Source: Bacteroidales bacterium UBA4360
Lineage (GTDB): Bacteria > Bacteroidota > Bacteroidia > Bacteroidales > UBA932
DNA length: 64,000 nt
Assembly: GCA_002393945.1 (NCBI GenBank)
Contig: DGSO01000020.1
Location: 38,517 to 102,516 of the forward strand
Direction of reading: 5' to 3'
How positions within the stretch are numbered: the stretch's first letter is position 1; each line of letters begins with the position of its first letter. The notes under the pieces were generated by a model. That model saw only the letters and a list, made by a program, of their open reading frames with translations. It was not told the origin of the DNA and searched no databases. Both the position numbers and the translations under genes were made by a program. This document shows positions 10,709 through 19,871 of the stretch, piece after piece.

Positions 10709-12265
10709 ATGAGCATTCAATCCGAGAATATCAAAAAACTGGTAGAAAGAAGGGAGAAGGCCCGCCTTGGCGGCGGCCCAAAAAGAATTGAAGCCCAGCA
10801 TGCAAAAGGAAAGAAAACGGCCAGGGAGCGTCTTGAACTCCTCCTTGACCCGGGATCCTTCGAGGAAACGGACATGTTCCTCCAGCACCGCTGCACCAAC
10901 TTCGGCATGGACGCGAGTCATCCTGACGGGGACGGAGTCGTAACCGGTTTCGGCACAATCGACGGCCGCCTTGTATATGTTTACGCACAGGATTTTACCG
11001 TAAGCGGCGGCTCCCTGTCCAAGACCATGAGCGAAAAGATTTGCAAGATTCAGGATATGGCTCTCCGTGCAGGCGCTCCCTGCATCGCCCTTAACGATTC
11101 CGGCGGCGCCCGAATCCAGGAAGGCATCGACGCCCTTGCAGGTTACGGCGAGATTTTCGAGCGCAATATTCTCTCTTCCGGAGTCATTCCGCAGATAAGC
11201 GGTATTTTCGGCCCCTGCGCCGGCGGTGCCGTCTATTCTCCGGCACTTACGGACTTCACCCTCATGGTAAAGAATTCCTCCTATATGTTCCTAACCGGTC
11301 CCGCAGTCGTAAAGAGCGTGACAGGTGAGGTGGTAGACCAGGAAGAACTTGGAGGAGCGTCTGTCCACGCATCTAAGAGCGGTGTAGCCCACTTTGCAGC
11401 GGACAGCGAGGAAGACGGTATCCAGACCATAAAGAAACTCCTGAGCTTCCTCCCCCAGAACAATATGGAAACCGCCCCCGAAAAGCCCACGGAGGACTCC
11501 CCTTTCCGCCTGGACGATGAGCTGAATTCCATAATACCCGACAATCCCAACAAGTCCTACGACATGTACAAGGTCATAGGCAGCATTGTCGATGACGGCG
11601 AATTCTTCGAGATTCACAAGGACTATGCTAAGAACATCATCGTTGGCTTCGCTCACATGAACGGCCGCAGCGTAGGCATCGTCGCAAACCAGCCTGCAGT
11701 CCTGGCCGGTGTCCTTGACATCAACGCATCCCGCAAGGCTTCACGTTTCGTGCGTTTCTGCGACGCCTTCAACATCCCGCTCGTCACCCTCGTCGATGTT
11801 CCCGGCTTCCTCCCAGGCACCCAGCAGGAGTATGGCGCCATCATCACCAACGGCGCAAAGCTGCTGTACGCATACGGAGAAGCCACCGTCCCCAAGGTCA
11901 CGGTGACGCTCAGGAAGGGCTACGGCGGCGCCCACATCGTCATGAGCTGCAAACAGCTGCGCGGAGACATAAATTACGCATGGCCCTCTGCCCAGATAGC
12001 AGTCATGGGTGCCGACGGCGCAGTGAACGTCCTCTACGCCAAGGAACTCAAGGCCGATCCCGAACACGCCTCCGAAATCTTCGAGGAAAAGAAGAAGGAA
12101 TACGAAGATCTCTTCTCCAACCCCTATCAGGCAGCCCAGAAGGGATATATCGACGATATAATTGAGCCGCGCAACACCCGTTTCCGCGTAATCCGCGCCC
12201 TTGAGAGCCTTGCCGGCAAACGTCAGGAAATACCAGCCAAGAAACATGACAACCTCCCTCTATAG
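10709..12265 (+). CDS. mmdA: Acyl-CoA carboxyltransferase (methylmalonyl-CoA decarboxylase alpha subunit)
   Basis: GDGVVTG, DSGGARIQEG, GPCAGGAVYSPA, DVPGFLPG, KKHDNLPL; sits in an operon with Na+-pump subunits. Confidence 0.88.
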   Translation: MSIQSENIKKLVERREKARLGGGPKRIEAQHAKGKKTARERLELLLDPGSFEETDMFLQHRCTNFGMDASHPDGDGVVTGFGTIDGRLVYVYAQDFTVSGGSLSKTMSEKICKIQDMALRAGAPCIALNDSGGARIQEGIDALAGYGEIFERNILSSGVIPQISGIFGPCAGGAVYSPALTDFTLMVKNSSYMFLTGPAVVKSVTGEVVDQEELGGASVHASKSGVAHFAADSEEDGIQTIKKLLSFLPQNNMETAPEKPTEDSPFRLDDELNSIIPDNPNKSYDMYKVIGSIVDDGEFFEIHKDYAKNIIVGFAHMNGRSVGIVANQPAVLAGVLDINASRKASRFVRFCDAFNIPLVTLVDVPGFLPGTQQEYGAIITNGAKLLYAYGEATVPKVTVTLRKGYGGAHIVMSCKQLRGDINYAWPSAQIAVMGADGAVNVLYAKELKADPEHASEIFEEKKKEYEDLFSNPYQAAQKGYIDDIIEPRNTRFRVIRALESLAGKRQEIPAKKHDNLPL

Positions 12266-12653
12266 CGCACTTCTCACGGCCGGCTCAGACCGCATGGCCC
12301 AGACAGACCCGCACGGATGGACGCTTACCCTCATAAGCGTTGTCGTGGTTTTCACTGCGCTCATCATCCTGTATTTCGTTTACAGTTTCTCGGGTAAGGT
12401 CTTCTCCGGGGCTTTCAAGACAAAACGCCGCTCCGGGAAGAAAGCAGCCGCTCCGGACGGGGAAGTCGCAGCGGCCATTGCGGCAGCCATCGACATGGAA
12501 AACGGAGGCGAGACCTATGCCGCCATCGCAGCTGCGGTCCACATGTACCTCAGCGATGCCGTCCACGACCATGAGCCGCTGGTGCTCACTATCCGCCACA
12601 AGGACACTCCATGGGAAACAAAATCCCTTAATTTCAGAAAATTACCTAGATAA
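12246..12653 (+). CDS. OadG/MmdD family decarboxylase membrane subunit
   Basis: Single TM helix (ISVVVVFTALIILYFVY), AAIAAA repeats, C-terminal HD-E motif, operon position. Confidence 0.8.
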   Translation: MTTSLYSALLTAGSDRMAQTDPHGWTLTLISVVVVFTALIILYFVYSFSGKVFSGAFKTKRRSGKKAAAPDGEVAAAIAAAIDMENGGETYAAIAAAVHMYLSDAVHDHEPLVLTIRHKDTPWETKSLNFRKLPR

Positions 12654-12656
12654 GAT

Positions 12657-13079
12657 ATGAAAGAGTATAAATTTACCATCAACGGAAAGGAATATAACGT
12701 ATGCGTTGGTGAAGCAGAAGGAAAAATACTGCCAGTAAAGGTCAACGGGGCCGATTATGAGGTTCAGCTCGAAAACGCTCCTGCAGCAGCGCCTGCACCG
12801 GTTGTAAAAGCAGCAGCCGCTCCCGTACAGGAAGCAGCAAAGCCCGCTGCAGCGGCACCTGCCGGCGGCAAGACTGTCCAGAGCCCTCTTCCCGGCATCA
12901 TCATCAGCGTAGACGTAAAGGAAGGCCAGGCTGTAAAGCGCGGCCAGAAGGTTGCCGTAATCGAGGCAATGAAGATGGAAAACGACATCCTTGCCGAAGT
13001 TGACGGCACCATCACTGCCATCCACGTCGGAAAGGGCGATTCGGTACTCGAAGGGGCAGACATCGTAACCATTGGCTGA
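12657..13079 (+). CDS. mmdC: Biotin carboxyl carrier subunit
   Basis: Ala/Pro-rich linker, SPLPG, EAMKM biotinylation motif. Confidence 0.93.
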   Translation: MKEYKFTINGKEYNVCVGEAEGKILPVKVNGADYEVQLENAPAAAPAPVVKAAAAPVQEAAKPAAAAPAGGKTVQSPLPGIIISVDVKEGQAVKRGQKVAVIEAMKMENDILAEVDGTITAIHVGKGDSVLEGADIVTIG

Positions 13080-14239
13080 TGGATACTATAATTGACAGTC
13101 TGAGGCAGTTCTGGCAGTTCACTGGTTTTGCCAACTGCACATGGCAGCACCTTGCCATGATTGCAATCGGCCTCATCTTCATTACCCTTGGCATAGTCAA
13201 AAAGTGGGAACCGCTGCTTCTGGTGCCTATCGGCTTCGGCATGATCATAGGCAATATACCCCTTTTCTTTGACCCGGCCACGGGAGTCGGCCTGAAGATA
13301 GGCATATACGAGGAAGGGTCTGTCCTCAATATCCTGTACCACGGAGTGAGAAACGGCTGGTATCCGCCGCTGATCTTCCTTGGCATCGGCGCCATGACGG
13401 ACTTTTCGGCACTTATTTCGCAGCCGAGGCTGATACTTATCGGCGCGGCTGCACAGCTTGGCATTTTCGGGGCATATCTTCTCGCCCTGGCCCTTGGATT
13501 CGCGCCCAACGAGGCCGGAGCCATCGGCATTATTGGCGGTGCAGACGGTCCTACGGCCATTTTCCTGAGCTCCAAGCTGGCACCTGAACTGATGGGCGCC
13601 ATCGCGGTATCGGCATACTCATACATGGCTCTTGTCCCCGTTATCCAGAAGCCTATCATGCTGCTTCTTACAACGAAGAAAGAGCGTTTGATAAGGATGA
13701 ACAAGCCCCGTACGGTGAGCCAGAAGGAGAAGATCATCTTCCCTATCGTAGGCTTCATCTGCACGGCCTTCATAGTTCCGAGCGGCCTTCCCCTTCTGGG
13801 CATGCTCTTCTTCGGAAATCTTCTCAAGGAAAGCGGAGTCACGAAGCGCCTGGCAGCAACCGCCGGCGGCCCGCTTATCGACATCGTGACAACCCTCATC
13901 GGCCTCACGGTAGGCGCATCCACCCAGGCCGATGTGTTCCTGACCGGGAAATCAGTCCTCATCTTCGGACTCGGTCTCGTTTCCTTCGTGATCGCGACAT
14001 TCTTCGGCGTGAGTTTCGTCAAGTTCATGAACCTGTTCCTGCCGGAAGGCAAGAAGGTCAATCCGCTCATCGGCAATGCCGGCGTTTCGGCAGTTCCGGA
14101 TGCGGCGCGCGTATCCGAGACAGTCGGACTCGAGGCCGATCCTTCCAACCATCTTCTCACCCATGCAATGGCCCCCAACGTGGCCGGTGTGATCGGTTCC
14201 GCAGTTGCGGCAGGTATCCTTCTGGGATTCCTCGGTTAG
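13079..14239 (+). CDS. mmdB: Na+-translocating decarboxylase beta subunit
   Basis: IGIIGGADGPTAIF, GVSAVP, MAPNVAGVIGSA. Confidence 0.93.
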   Translation: MDTIIDSLRQFWQFTGFANCTWQHLAMIAIGLIFITLGIVKKWEPLLLVPIGFGMIIGNIPLFFDPATGVGLKIGIYEEGSVLNILYHGVRNGWYPPLIFLGIGAMTDFSALISQPRLILIGAAAQLGIFGAYLLALALGFAPNEAGAIGIIGGADGPTAIFLSSKLAPELMGAIAVSAYSYMALVPVIQKPIMLLLTTKKERLIRMNKPRTVSQKEKIIFPIVGFICTAFIVPSGLPLLGMLFFGNLLKESGVTKRLAATAGGPLIDIVTTLIGLTVGASTQADVFLTGKSVLIFGLGLVSFVIATFFGVSFVKFMNLFLPEGKKVNPLIGNAGVSAVPDAARVSETVGLEADPSNHLLTHAMAPNVAGVIGSAVAAGILLGFLG

Positions 14240-14261
14240 GTTTTTACAAAATACAGTCTTC

Positions 14262-14294
14262 AAACCGGCGTGATTTATTCATACCGGTTTTTTT
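14262..14294 (+). terminator. Intrinsic terminator after the decarboxylase operon
   Basis: AAACCGG...CCGGTTT stem followed by a T run. Confidence 0.7.
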
Positions 14295-14313
14295 ATAAAA
14301 ACGTTAATTAATT

Positions 14314-14347
14314 TTTGATTTTTGCTTAAAATTTTTAACTTTGTAAG
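14314..14347 (+). promoter_or_regulatory. iorA promoter
   Basis: TTTG at 14314 and TAACTTTG at 14336-14343 (18-nt spacer). Confidence 0.6.
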
Positions 14348-14392
14348 CAAATGGGCAATTAAAACAATAACCACAAGCCCTGATATAACACT

Positions 14393-15985
14393 ATGGCTGA
14401 AAAAAACCTATTGCTTGGAGACGAGGCACTTGCTCTGGGTGCCATCCATGCCGGCCTTTCCGGCGTTTACGCCTACCCCGGCACGCCTTCTACAGAGATT
14501 ACGGAGTATATCCAGGGACACCCCCTAACTCGTGAAAGAAACATCCACTGCGACTGGTCTTCAAACGAGAAGACTGCAATGGAAGGAGCCCTTGGAATGT
14601 CTTATGCAGGCAAGCGTGCACTCGTGTGCATGAAACACGTTGGCATGAACGTGTGCGCCGATCCTCTCATGGGTTCTGCAATGACAGGAGCGAACGGCGG
14701 TCTCATCATAGCCGCCTGCGACGATCCTTCCATGCACAGTTCACAGAACGAGCAGGATTCCCGCTTCTGGGGCACCTTCGGCATGCTGCCCGTATTCGAA
14801 CCTTCCAACCAGCAGGAGACCTATAATATGACCCGCGCGGCGCTGGATTATTCGGAAAAACGCGGCATCCCTGTCATCATGAGGCTGACTACCCGCATGG
14901 CCCACAGCCGCGCCGTGGTAGAAAGCGCCCCTATGCGCGAACAGAATCAGCTCCACTACCCGGAAAAAGCCCGCCAGTGGGTTACGCTTCCTGTCAATGC
15001 AAGGGTAAGGAACCGCGAACTCATCAAGGATTATGCGCTCTTCGAAGAGGATGCAGCCGCCTCCGAGTTCAACTGGCTCAAGGACGGCCCGGACAGGAGT
15101 CTCGGCATAATTGCCTGCGGTATAGGATACAACTACCTCATGGAGAACTATCCCGACGGCTGCCCGTTCCCGGTTCTCAAGGTGAGCCAGTATCCTTTCC
15201 CCAGGAAACTTGCGCTTGAACTAGCCTCGAAGGTGAAGGCCGTACTCGTCATAGAAGAAGGCCAGCCGCTGGTAGAGGAACGCATGAAGGGATACTTCCC
15301 CACTCCCGTACCTGTAAAGGGACGTCTTGACGGGACTCTTCCCAGGGATGGAGAACTCTCACCGGATGCCGTCCGCGCTGCAGTGGGCCTCCCTGCACTT
15401 CCGCAGTACAACACATCGGAAGTGGTGGTTCCGCGTCCGCCGGCACTTTGCCAGGGCTGCGGGCACAGGGACTTCTATACGGCTCTCAACAATGCCCTGA
15501 AGGATTATCCCGGAGCGAGGGTATTCGGCGATATCGGCTGCTACACCCTTGGCTGGATGCCTCCGTTCAACAGCCTTCATACCTGCGTGGAAATGGGCGC
15601 TTCATGCACCATGGCCCAGGGCGCCGCATTCAGCGGAACCTGGCCTGCAGTTGCCGTCATCGGCGATTCCACCTTCACCCACAGCGGCATGACAGGCCTT
15701 CTTGACGCAGTGAACAGCAAGGCCGATATAACCCTCTGCATATCCGACAACCTCACCACCGGCATGACCGGCGGCCAGGATTCTGCCGGCACAGGCCGCA
15801 TCGAAGCCATCTGCCAGGGACTCGGCGTCGAACCTGAGCATATCCGCACTATCGTCCCTCTCCCCAAGAACTATCCGGACATGGAGAAAGTCATCAAGGA
15901 GGAACTCGACTACCACGGCGTTTCCGTCATCGTATGCCGCCGCGAATGTATCCAGACACTTAGAAGACACGCTGCCAAAAAGTAA
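14393..15985 (+). CDS. iorA: Indolepyruvate ferredoxin oxidoreductase alpha subunit
   Basis: YPGTPSTEI, NEKTA, HSSQNEQDSR, LCQGCGHR, GDIGCY, IGDSTFTHSG (TPP binding), TGMTGGQ. Confidence 0.93.
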   Translation: MAEKNLLLGDEALALGAIHAGLSGVYAYPGTPSTEITEYIQGHPLTRERNIHCDWSSNEKTAMEGALGMSYAGKRALVCMKHVGMNVCADPLMGSAMTGANGGLIIAACDDPSMHSSQNEQDSRFWGTFGMLPVFEPSNQQETYNMTRAALDYSEKRGIPVIMRLTTRMAHSRAVVESAPMREQNQLHYPEKARQWVTLPVNARVRNRELIKDYALFEEDAAASEFNWLKDGPDRSLGIIACGIGYNYLMENYPDGCPFPVLKVSQYPFPRKLALELASKVKAVLVIEEGQPLVEERMKGYFPTPVPVKGRLDGTLPRDGELSPDAVRAAVGLPALPQYNTSEVVVPRPPALCQGCGHRDFYTALNNALKDYPGARVFGDIGCYTLGWMPPFNSLHTCVEMGASCTMAQGAAFSGTWPAVAVIGDSTFTHSGMTGLLDAVNSKADITLCISDNLTTGMTGGQDSAGTGRIEAICQGLGVEPEHIRTIVPLPKNYPDMEKVIKEELDYHGVSVIVCRRECIQTLRRHAAKK

Positions 15986-15991
15986 ACAGCC

Positions 15992-16576
15992 ATGAAAAAG
16001 GACATTATTCTTGCAGGCGTGGGAGGACAGGGTATCCTCTCCATCGCAACAGTTATCGGTTCTGCCGCTCTTGAGCAGGGCCTTTACCTCAAGCAGGCAG
16101 AAGTACACGGCATGAGCCAGAGGGGCGGCGACGTCCAGAGCCACCTCCGCCTGAGTTCAGAGCCCATATACAGCGACCTTATTCCCAAGGGCGGCGCAGA
16201 CCTCATCGTCTCCCTTGAGCCGATGGAGGCTCTCCGTTATGTCCCCTGCCTCGACCGGAACGGATGGATCATAACCAACACCGCTCCCTTAGTAAATATT
16301 CCCAATTACCCGGACATTGAGAAAGTAAAGGACGAACTGTCCTGCTATACCAATGTAATAGCGTTCGACGTCGACGCCCTGGCAAAGGACCTCGGCACGC
16401 CCCGCGGCGCAAACATGGTTCTTCTGGGCGCAACGGCTGCCGCTCTGGGCATTCTGGATGCAGACAAGCTCCGTGACGGTATACGCCGCGTATTTGCACG
16501 TAAAGGCGAGGCCGTGGTGGAATCCAACCTCAAGGCATTCAACGCAGGACTTGAGTATTCACTAAAGCAGAAGTAG
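15992..16576 (+). CDS. iorB: Indolepyruvate ferredoxin oxidoreductase beta subunit
   Basis: GVGGQG, EVHGMSQRGG, NMVLLGA. Confidence 0.93.
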   Translation: MKKDIILAGVGGQGILSIATVIGSAALEQGLYLKQAEVHGMSQRGGDVQSHLRLSSEPIYSDLIPKGGADLIVSLEPMEALRYVPCLDRNGWIITNTAPLVNIPNYPDIEKVKDELSCYTNVIAFDVDALAKDLGTPRGANMVLLGATAAALGILDADKLRDGIRRVFARKGEAVVESNLKAFNAGLEYSLKQK

Positions 16577-16577
16577 C

Positions 16578-17888
16578 ATGGAAAAACCCTTGGAAAAGAA
16601 AGTGCTGGACGAAGCCCTTGCAGAAATGGGCATTGAGGATGTTTCCCGCACTACCATACGCCAGTGCTCCATGCTTGGAAGCATGCTGGAGGAACGGGCC
16701 GGAGAGAAGTTCTCCCACCTGGAGTTCGGCGTCCCCGGTATTCCTGCCTGCCCTATCGGCATAGAAGCGCAGAAAAAGGCTCTTGACAACGGTATCCCTT
16801 CGATTTACCCGTCGGTCCAGGGCCTGCCTGAGCTGAAAAAGAACGCCGCCCGGTTCGTGAAGGCTTTCATTGACGTGGACATAGATCCAAAGGGCATAGT
16901 GCCCACCGTGGGCTCCATGCAGGGCAGCATGACAAGCATCCTGGAATGCTCTCAGCTCGATCCACGGAAAGACACAATCCTGTACATCTGCCCGGGTTTT
17001 TCCGCCCACGGCCGCCAGCCCGACATCCTCGGAATCAAGAACCTGACCTTCGACATATATGAATACAGGGCCGAAAAACTCCGCGAGAAACTGGAGTCCT
17101 ATTTCAAGGAAGGCAATATCGCCGCCATCCTGTATTCCAACCCCAACAACCCGGCCTGGATCTGCCTCACGGAAGAGGAACTCAAGATAATCGGAGACCT
17201 TGCAAACAAGTATGACGTAATAGTCCTCGAGGACATGGCATACCTATGCATGGACTTCAGAAAGGACATGTCAGTCCCCTTCCAGCCGCCGTTCCAAAGC
17301 ACTGTCGCCCGCTACACGGACAACTATGTCCTCCTCATTTCCGGCAGCAAGATATTCAGCTACGCCGGAGAGAGAATCGCCATCGTATGCATTTCAGACA
17401 AGCTCTATCACAGGGAGTATCCTGCGCTCAAGAAGAAATGGGGCATGGGAAAGTTCGGAGACAACTTCATTCTCAACTATCTCTATGTGAATACGTCAGG
17501 CGCTTCACATTCGGCGCAGTATGCCCTTTCGGCCATGTTCGAAGCTGCCGTAGACGGGAGATACAATTTCGTGAAGGAACTCAGGGACTACGGATTCAGG
17601 GCCCATCGCTCACGCGAAATCTTCGACCGCAACGGTTTCCATCTCGTGTATGACAAGGACATGGAACAGACCATTTCCGACGGCTTCTTCTATACGGTGG
17701 AATATAAGGATCTGAGCAACAAGGCTCTTCTTGAAGCCCTTCTCAGATGCGGCATCATTGCCATTCCGCTCAACACCACCGGAAGCGGCCAGTGCGGCAT
17801 CCGCGTCTGCGTTTCGCGCCTTCTCAGCGACGAAGACTTCGACCTTCTGGACAAGCATCTCAAGCTCTTTGTAAAACTCGTAAACTAA
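16578..17888 (+). CDS. PLP-dependent aminotransferase class I/II
   Basis: NPNNP, D-AY, SGSKIFSYAGERI (PLP lysine), IRV. Confidence 0.88.
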   Translation: MEKPLEKKVLDEALAEMGIEDVSRTTIRQCSMLGSMLEERAGEKFSHLEFGVPGIPACPIGIEAQKKALDNGIPSIYPSVQGLPELKKNAARFVKAFIDVDIDPKGIVPTVGSMQGSMTSILECSQLDPRKDTILYICPGFSAHGRQPDILGIKNLTFDIYEYRAEKLREKLESYFKEGNIAAILYSNPNNPAWICLTEEELKIIGDLANKYDVIVLEDMAYLCMDFRKDMSVPFQPPFQSTVARYTDNYVLLISGSKIFSYAGERIAIVCISDKLYHREYPALKKKWGMGKFGDNFILNYLYVNTSGASHSAQYALSAMFEAAVDGRYNFVKELRDYGFRAHRSREIFDRNGFHLVYDKDMEQTISDGFFYTVEYKDLSNKALLEALLRCGIIAIPLNTTGSGQCGIRVCVSRLLSDEDFDLLDKHLKLFVKLVN

Positions 17889-17894
17889 GCCCGA

Positions 17895-19187
17895 ATGAAA
17901 TATGTATCTGCCGACGAGGCCGTAAAACTCGTCCGAAGCGGCGACACCGTCGTCTGTCAGGGAGGAACCTCGGTTCCAGTCATCCTTCAGGAAGCACTTG
18001 CAAGAAGGCATGATGAACTCAGGGACGTCCAGATTGTCTGCGGCTTCAACATTACCGCCGGCGAAGCACCTTTCTGCAAGCCTGAATACAAGGACTCGTT
18101 CCTGGTGAACAGCATTTTCATCAGCGGCGACCAGCGCAAGCACATTGCCGCCGGTTACGGAACCATGACGCCGGCTTTCCTGGGAGAGGTTCCGGGGCTC
18201 TTCCGCCGCGGTGAAATCCCGGTGGACGTAGCCTTCATCAACTGCTCCCTTCCGGACGAGAACGGCTACTGCAGCTATGGTATTTCAGCCGATATCGCCG
18301 TATCGGCAGTGGAATGCGCGCGGGTAGTCATCGCCCAGGTGAGCCCCAACATTCCCTACCTGTACGGAAAGTGCCTCATACATGAGTCCAAGATAAGCGC
18401 GGCTGTATACTGCGAGGAGCCGCCCCTCGGCATGGTCTTCGGGGAGCCGACGCCCATCGAGGCGGCCATTGGCGCCAATGTCGCTTCCCAGATTCCGGAC
18501 GGCGCCTGCCTGCAGATAGGCGTCGGAGGCATCCCGAACGCCGTTTTGAACGGGATAAAGCACCATCAGCACCTGGGCCTTCACACTGAGGCCATGACCG
18601 ACGGCGTCATCCGCCTCATCAAGGAGGGCGTAATCGACAATTCGCTGAAGAAAGTGCATCCGGGAGTTAGCGTCGCGGCCCTTGCCATAGGCTCGGCGCC
18701 CATGTACAAGTACATAGACCACAACAAAACCATGGAGTTCTTCGACGTGGCCTATACCAACAATCCCTTCCTCATCGCCCAGAACCCCAGGGCCTGCGCC
18801 ATCAATTCGGCGATAGAGGTGGATCTTACAGGACAGGTCTGTGCCGATTCCATCGGCGAAATGATCTTCTCAAGCGTCGGCGGCCAGCATGATTTCATGT
18901 ATGGCTGCGCACTGGCCGAGGGCGGACGCACCTTCATCGCACTCCCCTCCCGCACATCCAAGGGAAAGGCCAAGATCGTCCCCACCCTGACACCCGGGGC
19001 CGGAGTGGTTACGACAAGGTTCCAGACACAATATGTTGCTACTGAATACGGTATAGTTTACCTGAGGAACCTTTCACTGGCCCAGCGGGCTAAAGCACTG
19101 ATTTCGATAGCTCACCCGGACGACCGGGATGAACTGGAAAAAGCCGCATGCAAGCGCTTCGGATACAGTTTTTTGAGACTCAAATAG
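17895..19187 (+). CDS. Acetyl-CoA hydrolase / acyl-CoA transferase family protein
   Basis: LQIGVGGIP, LHTE catalytic Glu, DLTGQVCADS, GGQHDF, ISIAHPDDR. Confidence 0.9.
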   Translation: MKYVSADEAVKLVRSGDTVVCQGGTSVPVILQEALARRHDELRDVQIVCGFNITAGEAPFCKPEYKDSFLVNSIFISGDQRKHIAAGYGTMTPAFLGEVPGLFRRGEIPVDVAFINCSLPDENGYCSYGISADIAVSAVECARVVIAQVSPNIPYLYGKCLIHESKISAAVYCEEPPLGMVFGEPTPIEAAIGANVASQIPDGACLQIGVGGIPNAVLNGIKHHQHLGLHTEAMTDGVIRLIKEGVIDNSLKKVHPGVSVAALAIGSAPMYKYIDHNKTMEFFDVAYTNNPFLIAQNPRACAINSAIEVDLTGQVCADSIGEMIFSSVGGQHDFMYGCALAEGGRTFIALPSRTSKGKAKIVPTLTPGAGVVTTRFQTQYVATEYGIVYLRNLSLAQRAKALISIAHPDDRDELEKAACKRFGYSFLRLK

Positions 19188-19196
19188 ATTCGAAAC

Positions 19197-19230
19197 AATC
19201 GGGCAGGTCCTCTTGCCCGATTATTTTTTT
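19197..19230 (+). terminator. Intrinsic terminator
   Basis: AATCGGGCA / TGCCCGATT stem followed by A and T7. Confidence 0.85.
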
Positions 19231-19235
19231 ATTGC

Positions 19236-19243
19236 TATATTTG
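19236..19243 (+). promoter_or_regulatory. -7 element of the V-ATPase operon promoter
   Basis: TATATTTG about 22 nt before the ATG at 19266. Confidence 0.55.
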
Positions 19244-19265
19244 TAAATTAACTAAATGCATTCAT

Positions 19266-19871
19266 ATGGACAAACTCCAGGAACTTACAGAGAAACTCTA
19301 TAACGAGGGACTTGCAAAGGGTAAAGAAGAGGGAGAGGCTCTCCTTCAGAAGGCTCGCGAAGAAGCCGCCCAGATAGTGAAAAAGGCCCAGGAAGAAGCA
19401 GAGGCCATTATTGCAGGGGCAAAGAAAGACGCCGAAAACTACCGCATCAAGGTGGAAGGAGATGTACGCATGGCATCTCAGAGCGCACTTCTCACCACCC
19501 GTAACGCCATCGAGAACCTTCTGGTTGCAGAAGCCACCGAAAAGGGTGTTGCCGGAGCCCTCTCTGAGGAAGAATACCTCAAGGGAATCATCTCTGCAGT
19601 GGCAAAGAATTTCTCTGCCCAGGAACCTGCAGACCTCGCCCTCGTTCTTCCGGAAAACCTAAAGGCCGGCCTCGAGCCCTATGTCAAGAACGAGCTTGCA
19701 AAGGCCGTAGGCAAGGGCGTGGAAGCCACTTTCTCCAAGAAAATCGGCGCTGGATTCAAGATCGGCCCCAAGGACGGCAGTTACTTCATCAGCCTTACCG
19801 ATGAGAGTTTCAAGACGCTCATCGGCGAATATCTCAGGCCTGCCACAAGGAAAATCCTCTTCGGTGAATGA
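19266..19871 (+). CDS. ntpE: V-type ATPase subunit E
   Basis: Coiled-coil N-terminus, AGFKIG motif, first gene of the operon. Confidence 0.85.
   Translation: MDKLQELTEKLYNEGLAKGKEEGEALLQKAREEAAQIVKKAQEEAEAIIAGAKKDAENYRIKVEGDVRMASQSALLTTRNAIENLLVAEATEKGVAGALSEEEYLKGIISAVAKNFSAQEPADLALVLPENLKAGLEPYVKNELAKAVGKGVEATFSKKIGAGFKIGPKDGSYFISLTDESFKTLIGEYLRPATRKILFGE

Follow-up and report, generated by a model that had tools for sequence, protein, structure and literature searches.

The window analysed here, a 64,000-nucleotide stretch of contig DGSO01000020.1 of Bacteroidales bacterium UBA4360, carries an operon in which the two genes of indolepyruvate:ferredoxin oxidoreductase (IOR), iorA and iorB, are followed by genes for an aminotransferase and a family I (Cat1-type) CoA-transferase. 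We propose, with a probability of about one half, that this one transcript encodes a three-step catabolic route from an aromatic amino acid to the arylacetate, in which the thioester is kept; the substrates, the CoA partner and the direction are what we infer from sequence and genome context. The aminotransferase would turn Phe, Tyr or Trp into the arylpyruvate, and IorAB, by chemistry known for its family, would oxidatively decarboxylate the arylpyruvate to arylacetyl-CoA, CO2 and reduced ferredoxin. The transferase would then pass the CoA, through an intermediate on Glu232, to a short-chain acid, most likely acetate, to yield phenylacetate, 4-hydroxyphenylacetate or indoleacetate, with the thioester conserved as acetyl-CoA. 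Acetate kinase and phosphotransacylase could draw ATP from the acetyl-CoA, and reduced ferredoxin could feed Rnf; the genome has ackA, rnfC and a gene of the PTA/PTB family. All steps should be reversible, and the net flux is more likely catabolic.

Organization of the ior operon

The intergenic gaps between iorA, iorB, the aminotransferase gene and the transferase gene are 6, 1 and 6 nucleotides (nt). A first-pass annotation of the sequence had described four genes separated by 1-6 nt between one promoter and one terminator, and the open reading frames, the -7 box and the hairpins were all found (Table 1). Both hairpins (14262-14291 and 19197-19222) folded better than all of 200 shuffles, and a TAnnTTTG box is located near upstream of iorA in many relatives. 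A sigma-70 promoter scan, which does not model Bacteroidetes-type promoters, detected nothing above chance, and there were no Rfam matches in 14000-19500.

In three studies the contigs assembled from RNA libraries begin at 14359, 14360 and 14359, and in run X1 such contigs, which are not reads and may derive from DNA carry-over, span all three gene junctions. This is a hint that the four genes are co-transcribed as one unit: the bridging contigs fit one transcript without proving it. Contig depth was not used for ranking the genes, and the contig-free stretches 13900-14359 and 19070-19285 were not taken as evidence. A synteny survey, which had been suggested with the first-pass annotation, revealed that the order iorA-iorB-aminotransferase-transferase is conserved and the flanks are variable. 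Since the gene order is kept while the flanking genes vary, the adjacency of the four genes is not due to chance; the four-gene unit, a probable operon, is real. A protein homolog search yielded relatives of at least 80% identity only. The close relatives of the operon are in metagenome-assembled genomes (MAGs) from ruminant gut, one of them named Candidatus Cryptobacteroides, and those of approximately 74% identity are in human gut assemblies; the host is a Cryptobacteroides-like member of the rumen Bacteroidales.

The CoA-transferase replaces a ligase

The distribution of the partner genes was determined in 121 genomes of the genus, 50 with and 71 without iorA, all of them MAGs whose contigs may be mis-binned. 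Among the 50 iorA genomes 27 have, genome-wide, the transferase only, 21 a PaaK-type ligase only, two have both and none has neither, whereas 64 of the 71 genomes without iorA have neither the transferase nor the ligase. PaaK was not found in the locus or elsewhere in this 94%-complete genome, nor did the genome yield a PaaI thioesterase, an ADP-forming ligase or SucCD, which might have dealt with arylacetyl-CoA in another way. The transferase occupies the slot of the ligase, and at the genome level the two are almost mutually exclusive. These counts bear out the replacement of a ligase by a CoA-transferase, which the first-pass annotation had put forward for this locus; the pairing of ior with a ligase in Bacteroides, from which it argued, is published and assayed (PMC13285125).

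Loci with an iorA at least 63% identical to that of the window show the order iorA-iorB-aminotransferase-transferase. In most other iorA loci iorAB comes with a PaaK-type ligase and either an ACT gene or a PaaI thioesterase, the aminotransferase being present in some and absent from others, and most ligase genomes have an ACT gene in the ior cassette; two iorA loci consist of iorAB alone, with ligases elsewhere in the genome. A total of 80 transferase loci were retrieved: 60 had the four-gene order, 11, belonging to one clade, had lost only the aminotransferase and kept iorA-iorB-transferase, and one was rearranged. The same four-gene order was found in four genomes of two other families. Among 350 further genomes of the order, in which iorB is common, close orthologs were found in no more than 6; this order-wide set covers 1.5 kb on each side of iorB and may thus overlook partner genes that lie upstream of iorA.

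A few loci depart from the two main arrangements. Four of them (L052, L055, L057 and L058) represent a third cassette form, iorA-iorB-PaaK-aminotransferase-PaaI thioesterase, in which an activating and a releasing enzyme stand together. Genome G097 has both complete cassettes on different contigs (loci L037 and L070), by duplication or mis-binning. In seven loci (L154, L156, L157, L158, L159, L163 and L164), five of which are from one clade, the aminotransferase and CoA-transferase genes are paired without adjacent iorAB. The transferase copy at L046:7362-8648 (genome G114) has two in-frame stops, which makes it a pseudogene or an assembly error, and was counted as present.

Trees of iorA and of the aminotransferase, both unrooted, each split by partner (transferase versus ligase) with one change. 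On the host tree, built from the single gene rpoB, six changes were required, no fewer than with shuffles, and a single ligase clade was rejected (p-AU 4e-69); rpoB of the present genome was not found. Because the trees of the cassette genes need one change and the rpoB tree six, the exclusivity is not merely one inherited split, and it follows that the swap arose once and that whole cassettes are now spread across species. The pattern is, as judged from the trees, that of two whole exchangeable cassettes, distributed by transfer or differential loss and rarely present in the same genome.

Properties of the encoded proteins

The structural model of the transferase has a TM score of 0.94 to 2OAS and 3GK7. 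The catalytic Glu232 and V210 are invariant in 108 sequences, and the QxGhG loop is present; the predicted fold together with the catalytic residue establishes the mechanism class of this protein, a single non-Fe-S enzyme. In AbfT His31 contacts the 4-hydroxyl group, and His31 or, in RipA, Met31 shapes the acyl pocket (PMC3180442). The transferase does not have the His31 of AbfT: the aligned residue, Gly23, is Gly in all 108 sequences, in which Phe51, Phe75 and Phe95 are also invariant. Gly23 and the three invariant Phe residues are compatible with, and would allow, a larger acyl group. Gly23 is not diagnostic, because a Thermus butyrate transferase also has Gly at this position, and for the same reason it was rejected as proof of an aromatic pocket. 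The transferase stayed below the cut-offs of the models for butyryl-CoA:acetate (TIGR03948) and succinate (TIGR03458, ScpC) transferases (292 vs 675, 78 vs 659 and 62 vs 500 bits). A paralog of 47% identity is encoded elsewhere in this genome, and such a paralog was present in 5 of 5 genomes checked, which included both cassette types; general short-chain transfer thus has another candidate. There is also a third, weak hit to PF13336 on contig C32, which in its sequence and its neighbour resembles citrate lyase alpha.

We consider it likely, from the genomic association, that the transferase handles the arylacetyl-CoA made by IOR. It is a more tentative suggestion that it represents a new Cat1-type arylacetyl-CoA:acetate CoA-transferase, and that gut Bacteroidales exchange two ior cassettes that set the direction of flux, the ligase type consuming and the transferase type producing arylacetates.

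IorA has the domains PF01855 and PF02775 (IOR alpha-like). It scored 492 bits with TIGR03336, under the cut-off of 651, and covered model positions 2-541 of 595; the last approximately 55 positions of the model are missing from IorA, and all aligned relatives are about 530-540 amino acids (aa) long. Among control genomes one of the three matching ones was also under this cut-off. The thiamine pyrophosphate motif GDSTF...N453 and Cys353, Cys356, Cys383 and Cys519 are invariant in six aligned proteins. IorB exceeded the cut-off of NF005324 (298.8 vs 222 bits). The match of the aminotransferase to PDB 3G0T is full-length (E 6e-131), and the protein keeps the pyridoxal phosphate (PLP) lysine motif SGSK258 as well as D219, Y222, R266 and R409; none of the NCBIfam specificity models came near the cut-off for this protein. 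In other Bacteroidales families aminotransferases of the 3G0T family are encoded directly before vor-type genes (loci L015, L017, L019, L021, L027 and L029) or after ADP-forming ligase-like genes (L014 and L023).

Direction of the flux

Biosynthetic genes were compared between the ligase genomes, the transferase genomes and the genomes without ior. The corresponding fractions were 17/21, 2/27 and 17/64 for ilvD, 18/21, 10/27 and 16/64 for hisD, and 21/21, 14/27 and 42/64 for argC. There were no matches to trpA, ilvD, hisD and argC in the present 94%-complete genome, so the organism probably feeds on peptides that it imports. The genome does carry aroC and the genes for prephenate dehydratase and prephenate dehydrogenase, with which Phe and Tyr are made de novo. 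The transferase cassettes had neither a transporter nor an ACT gene at the loci examined, and in neither cassette type did the 300 nt upstream of iorA hold a conserved leader peptide rich in Phe, Tyr or Trp. The ligase genomes being prototrophic and mostly having ACT, and the transferase genomes being neither, with no leader attenuator, these observations point to opposite net directions: the ligase-type ior cassette looks biosynthetic, and the two cassettes probably run in opposite directions. The Bacteroides ligase was assayed as an arylacetate-CoA ligase and a biosynthetic role was suggested for it (PMC13285125), and B. thetaiotaomicron needs BT0430 to form phenylacetate from Phe (bioRxiv 10.64898/2026.09.28.754936). 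The idea of an ATP-sparing substitute for the ligase, raised by the first-pass annotation, thus stands as regards the swap in the slot, whereas like-for-like equivalence is disfavoured by the contrast in prototrophy and ACT genes.

In the rumen the concentration of acetate is far above that of the arylacetates. A near-equilibrium transferase working with acetate would therefore be pulled toward release of the acid.

The possibility that the cassette compensates for missing de novo pathways was rejected, as prephenate dehydratase did not differ between the groups (18/27 transferase, 17/21 ligase and 48/64 ior-less genomes) and trpA was commoner, not rarer, in ligase genomes. The ackA gene of the present genome is followed by a PTB-like gene (G000:C30:38551-40675). 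A strong Pta match was seen in two ligase-type genomes and in 0 of 3 transferase-type genomes, a tiny sample.

Alternative explanations

Several observations weigh against the proposed catabolic route. The characterised close structural relatives of the transferase all act on short-chain acids, and the 3G0T aminotransferase family elsewhere also adjoins vor genes, PaaK and ADP-forming ligases. Five genomes (88-99% complete) keep the aminotransferase and the transferase with no iorA found; in these, VOR could be the source of the thioester, as 45% activity on phenylpyruvate is on record for a VOR of archaea (PMC13285125). What the lifestyle comparison shows is chiefly an enrichment in ligase genomes, and transferase and ior-less genomes differ little (p 0.049 for ilvD; not significant for hisD and argC). 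The genome counts include non-independent kin, and independent pairs, 3:0 for ilvD, are not significant. Mis-binning of MAG contigs, moreover, bears on both the cassette counts and the trees.

The same enzymes and substrates might work in the net anabolic direction, rumen arylacetates being activated at the expense of acetyl-CoA and then turned into Phe, Tyr or Trp by reductive carboxylation, an ATP-sparing salvage of the kind considered in the first-pass annotation. We regard this as unlikely. In its favour, the ligase whose place the transferase takes was read as biosynthetic (PMC13285125), a CoA-transferase is known as a cheaper alternative to a ligase for benzoate (PMC10818641), trpA was not found in this genome nor in 24 of 27 transferase genomes, and 9 of the 27 yielded no prephenate dehydratase. 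However, trpA is present in only 3 of 64 ior-less genomes, and being mostly missing there too it shows no pattern of compensation. Salvage of Phe, which the first-pass annotation had considered, is not needed, and neither is that of Tyr, because the genes for making both are present in this genome; salvage of Trp may still be of use, as trpA was not found. The lack of a transporter, an ACT gene and an attenuator in the cassette also speaks against salvage, and the ratio of acetate to arylacetates opposes activation.

It is distinctly unlikely that the operon is a broad 2-oxoacid module with branched-chain amino acids or methionine as main substrates and the aromatic ones as secondary. The rarity of ilvD in transferase genomes (2/27), the frequent location of this aminotransferase family beside vor genes and the five ior-less genomes that retain the aminotransferase and the transferase, where VOR could supply the acyl-CoA, would fit such a module, but hisD and argC are biased in the same way as ilvD, which makes this a general pattern rather than one of branched-chain synthesis in particular. 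In addition, the ligase displaced is an arylacetate-CoA ligase in Bacteroides (PMC13285125), and in this ilvD-less genome genes for butyrate kinase, IlvE, a TPR-like protein and VOR form a cluster of their own (L178:5096-10200, G000:C17), through which branched-chain acids and amino acids might be interconverted; because of this separate cluster the branched-chain role contemplated in the first-pass annotation is weakened. An ordinary short-chain CoA-transferase, riding along or serving the neighbouring Na+-decarboxylase genes and unrelated to the IOR products, seems improbable. The nearest solved structures are 4-hydroxybutyrate and butyrate transferases (33-41% identity), mmdA-like genes lie directly upstream and a few orthologs stand alone. 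On the other side, the ior unit has its own promoter and terminators, the flanks differ in most relatives, none of the 50 iorA genomes is without both partners, the housekeeping paralog occurs in all five genomes checked, and methylmalonyl-CoA mutase was not found in this and four related genomes.

Relation to known systems

Each of the enzyme classes and the overall route are already known; new here are the exclusivity count, the history of the two cassettes, the lifestyle contrast and the RNA hint. The Bacteroides iorAB-ligase locus (B. thetaiotaomicron BT0430; PMC13285125; bioRxiv 10.64898/2026.09.28.754936) has a Bacteroidetes-type IorAB at the same arylpyruvate/arylacetyl-CoA node, and ligase-bearing sister cassettes in the present genus often carry the same aminotransferase family, whereas here a family I CoA-transferase, with a reversible, ATP-free step, stands instead of the ligase and the ACT gene. 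HpdDEFG-HpdJ-HpdK of Clostridium scatologenes and the IOR clusters of C. difficile also lead from amino acid through 2-oxoacid and acyl-CoA to free arylacetate with conservation of the thioester energy, but there the exit is by phosphotransacylase and kinase or by an ADP-forming ligase (PMC13285125). A CoA-transferase is not among the IOR exits listed in the consulted part of that survey. Peptide fermentation in archaea (Pyrococcus furiosus) shares the first two steps and the catabolic logic (role of IOR as given in PMC13285125). No ADP-forming synthetase was found here, unlike in P. furiosus, and IorA is shorter than the TIGR03336 model. The third step in P. furiosus is catalysed by an ADP-forming acyl-CoA synthetase.

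The transferase resembles the Cat1-type enzymes C. aminobutyricum AbfT (3GK7), Shewanella 2OAS, Y. pestis RipA and T. thermophilus CoAT (9VAG) in fold, catalytic Glu, QxGhG loop and phenylalanine-lined pocket. It differs from them in sequence (33-41% identity), in having Gly at the His31/Met31 site and about two extra residues near position 50, and the known members use short-chain acids. Geobacter metallireducens Bct (Gmet_2054; PMC10818641), a CoA-transferase acting between succinyl-CoA and benzoate, is likewise a less costly option than an AMP-forming ligase where an aromatic acid is concerned; substrate and pathway are different, there is no link to IOR, and the likeness is one of role. 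Literature searches, whose coverage was thin for subscription journals, returned no paper on an IOR-aminotransferase-CoA-transferase cluster or on a CoA-transferase exit for IOR, and nothing on Cryptobacteroides with indolepyruvate or on a P. gingivalis phenylacetyl-CoA transferase.

The compounds p-cresol, skatole and phenylacetylglutamine derive from arylacetates. Whether the IOR of Bacteroidales makes or consumes arylacetates is an open question according to PMC13285125, and iorA counts have been used as a proxy for arylacetate production (bioRxiv 10.64898/2026.09.28.754936). If the partner gene marks the direction, iorA counts in metagenomes should be split by cassette type, and from the partner one could predict which of the uncultured species in the rumen and the human gut produce phenylacetate, 4-hydroxyphenylacetate and indoleacetate. 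On the tentative reading given above, the CoA-transferase would be a further exit for IOR products beside kinase, ADP-forming ligase and thioesterase; the chemistry of the steps is otherwise familiar, which limits the surprise.

Features and neighbouring genes

Table 1. Genes and signals of the ior operon (positions in the window)
Feature	Position	Strand	Basis
iorA, indolepyruvate:ferredoxin oxidoreductase alpha (530 aa)	14393-15985	+	intact open reading frame, family models
iorB, indolepyruvate:ferredoxin oxidoreductase beta (194 aa)	15992-16576	+	NF005324 above cut-off
PLP class I/II aminotransferase (436 aa), PDB 3G0T family	16578-17888	+	PF00155, SGSK258
Family I (Cat1-type) CoA-transferase (430 aa), 4-hydroxybutyrate CoA-transferase fold	17895-19187	+	PF02550 and PF13336, Glu232
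Terminator-like hairpin of the upstream Na+-decarboxylase operon, 5' boundary of the ior unit	14262-14291	+	-13.3 kcal/mol, z -4.07, T tail
Bacteroidetes-type promoter: TTTG 14314-14317, -7 box TAACTTTG 14336-14343	14314-14343	+	seen in the sequence
Intrinsic terminator, 11-pair stem, T tail	19197-19232 (hairpin 19197-19222)	+	z -4.9

The mmdA-like Na+-translocating decarboxylase cluster upstream of the ior unit extends over 10709-14239; with regard to this cluster, neither SucCD nor the mutase was detected in the present genome and the four related ones. A functional tie of the ior operon to the upstream decarboxylase or the downstream V-ATPase genes was rejected in view of the separate boundaries and the variable flanks. 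A second TAnnTTTG box (TATATTTG) is located at 19237-19244, right after the terminator and ahead of the V-type ATPase operon.

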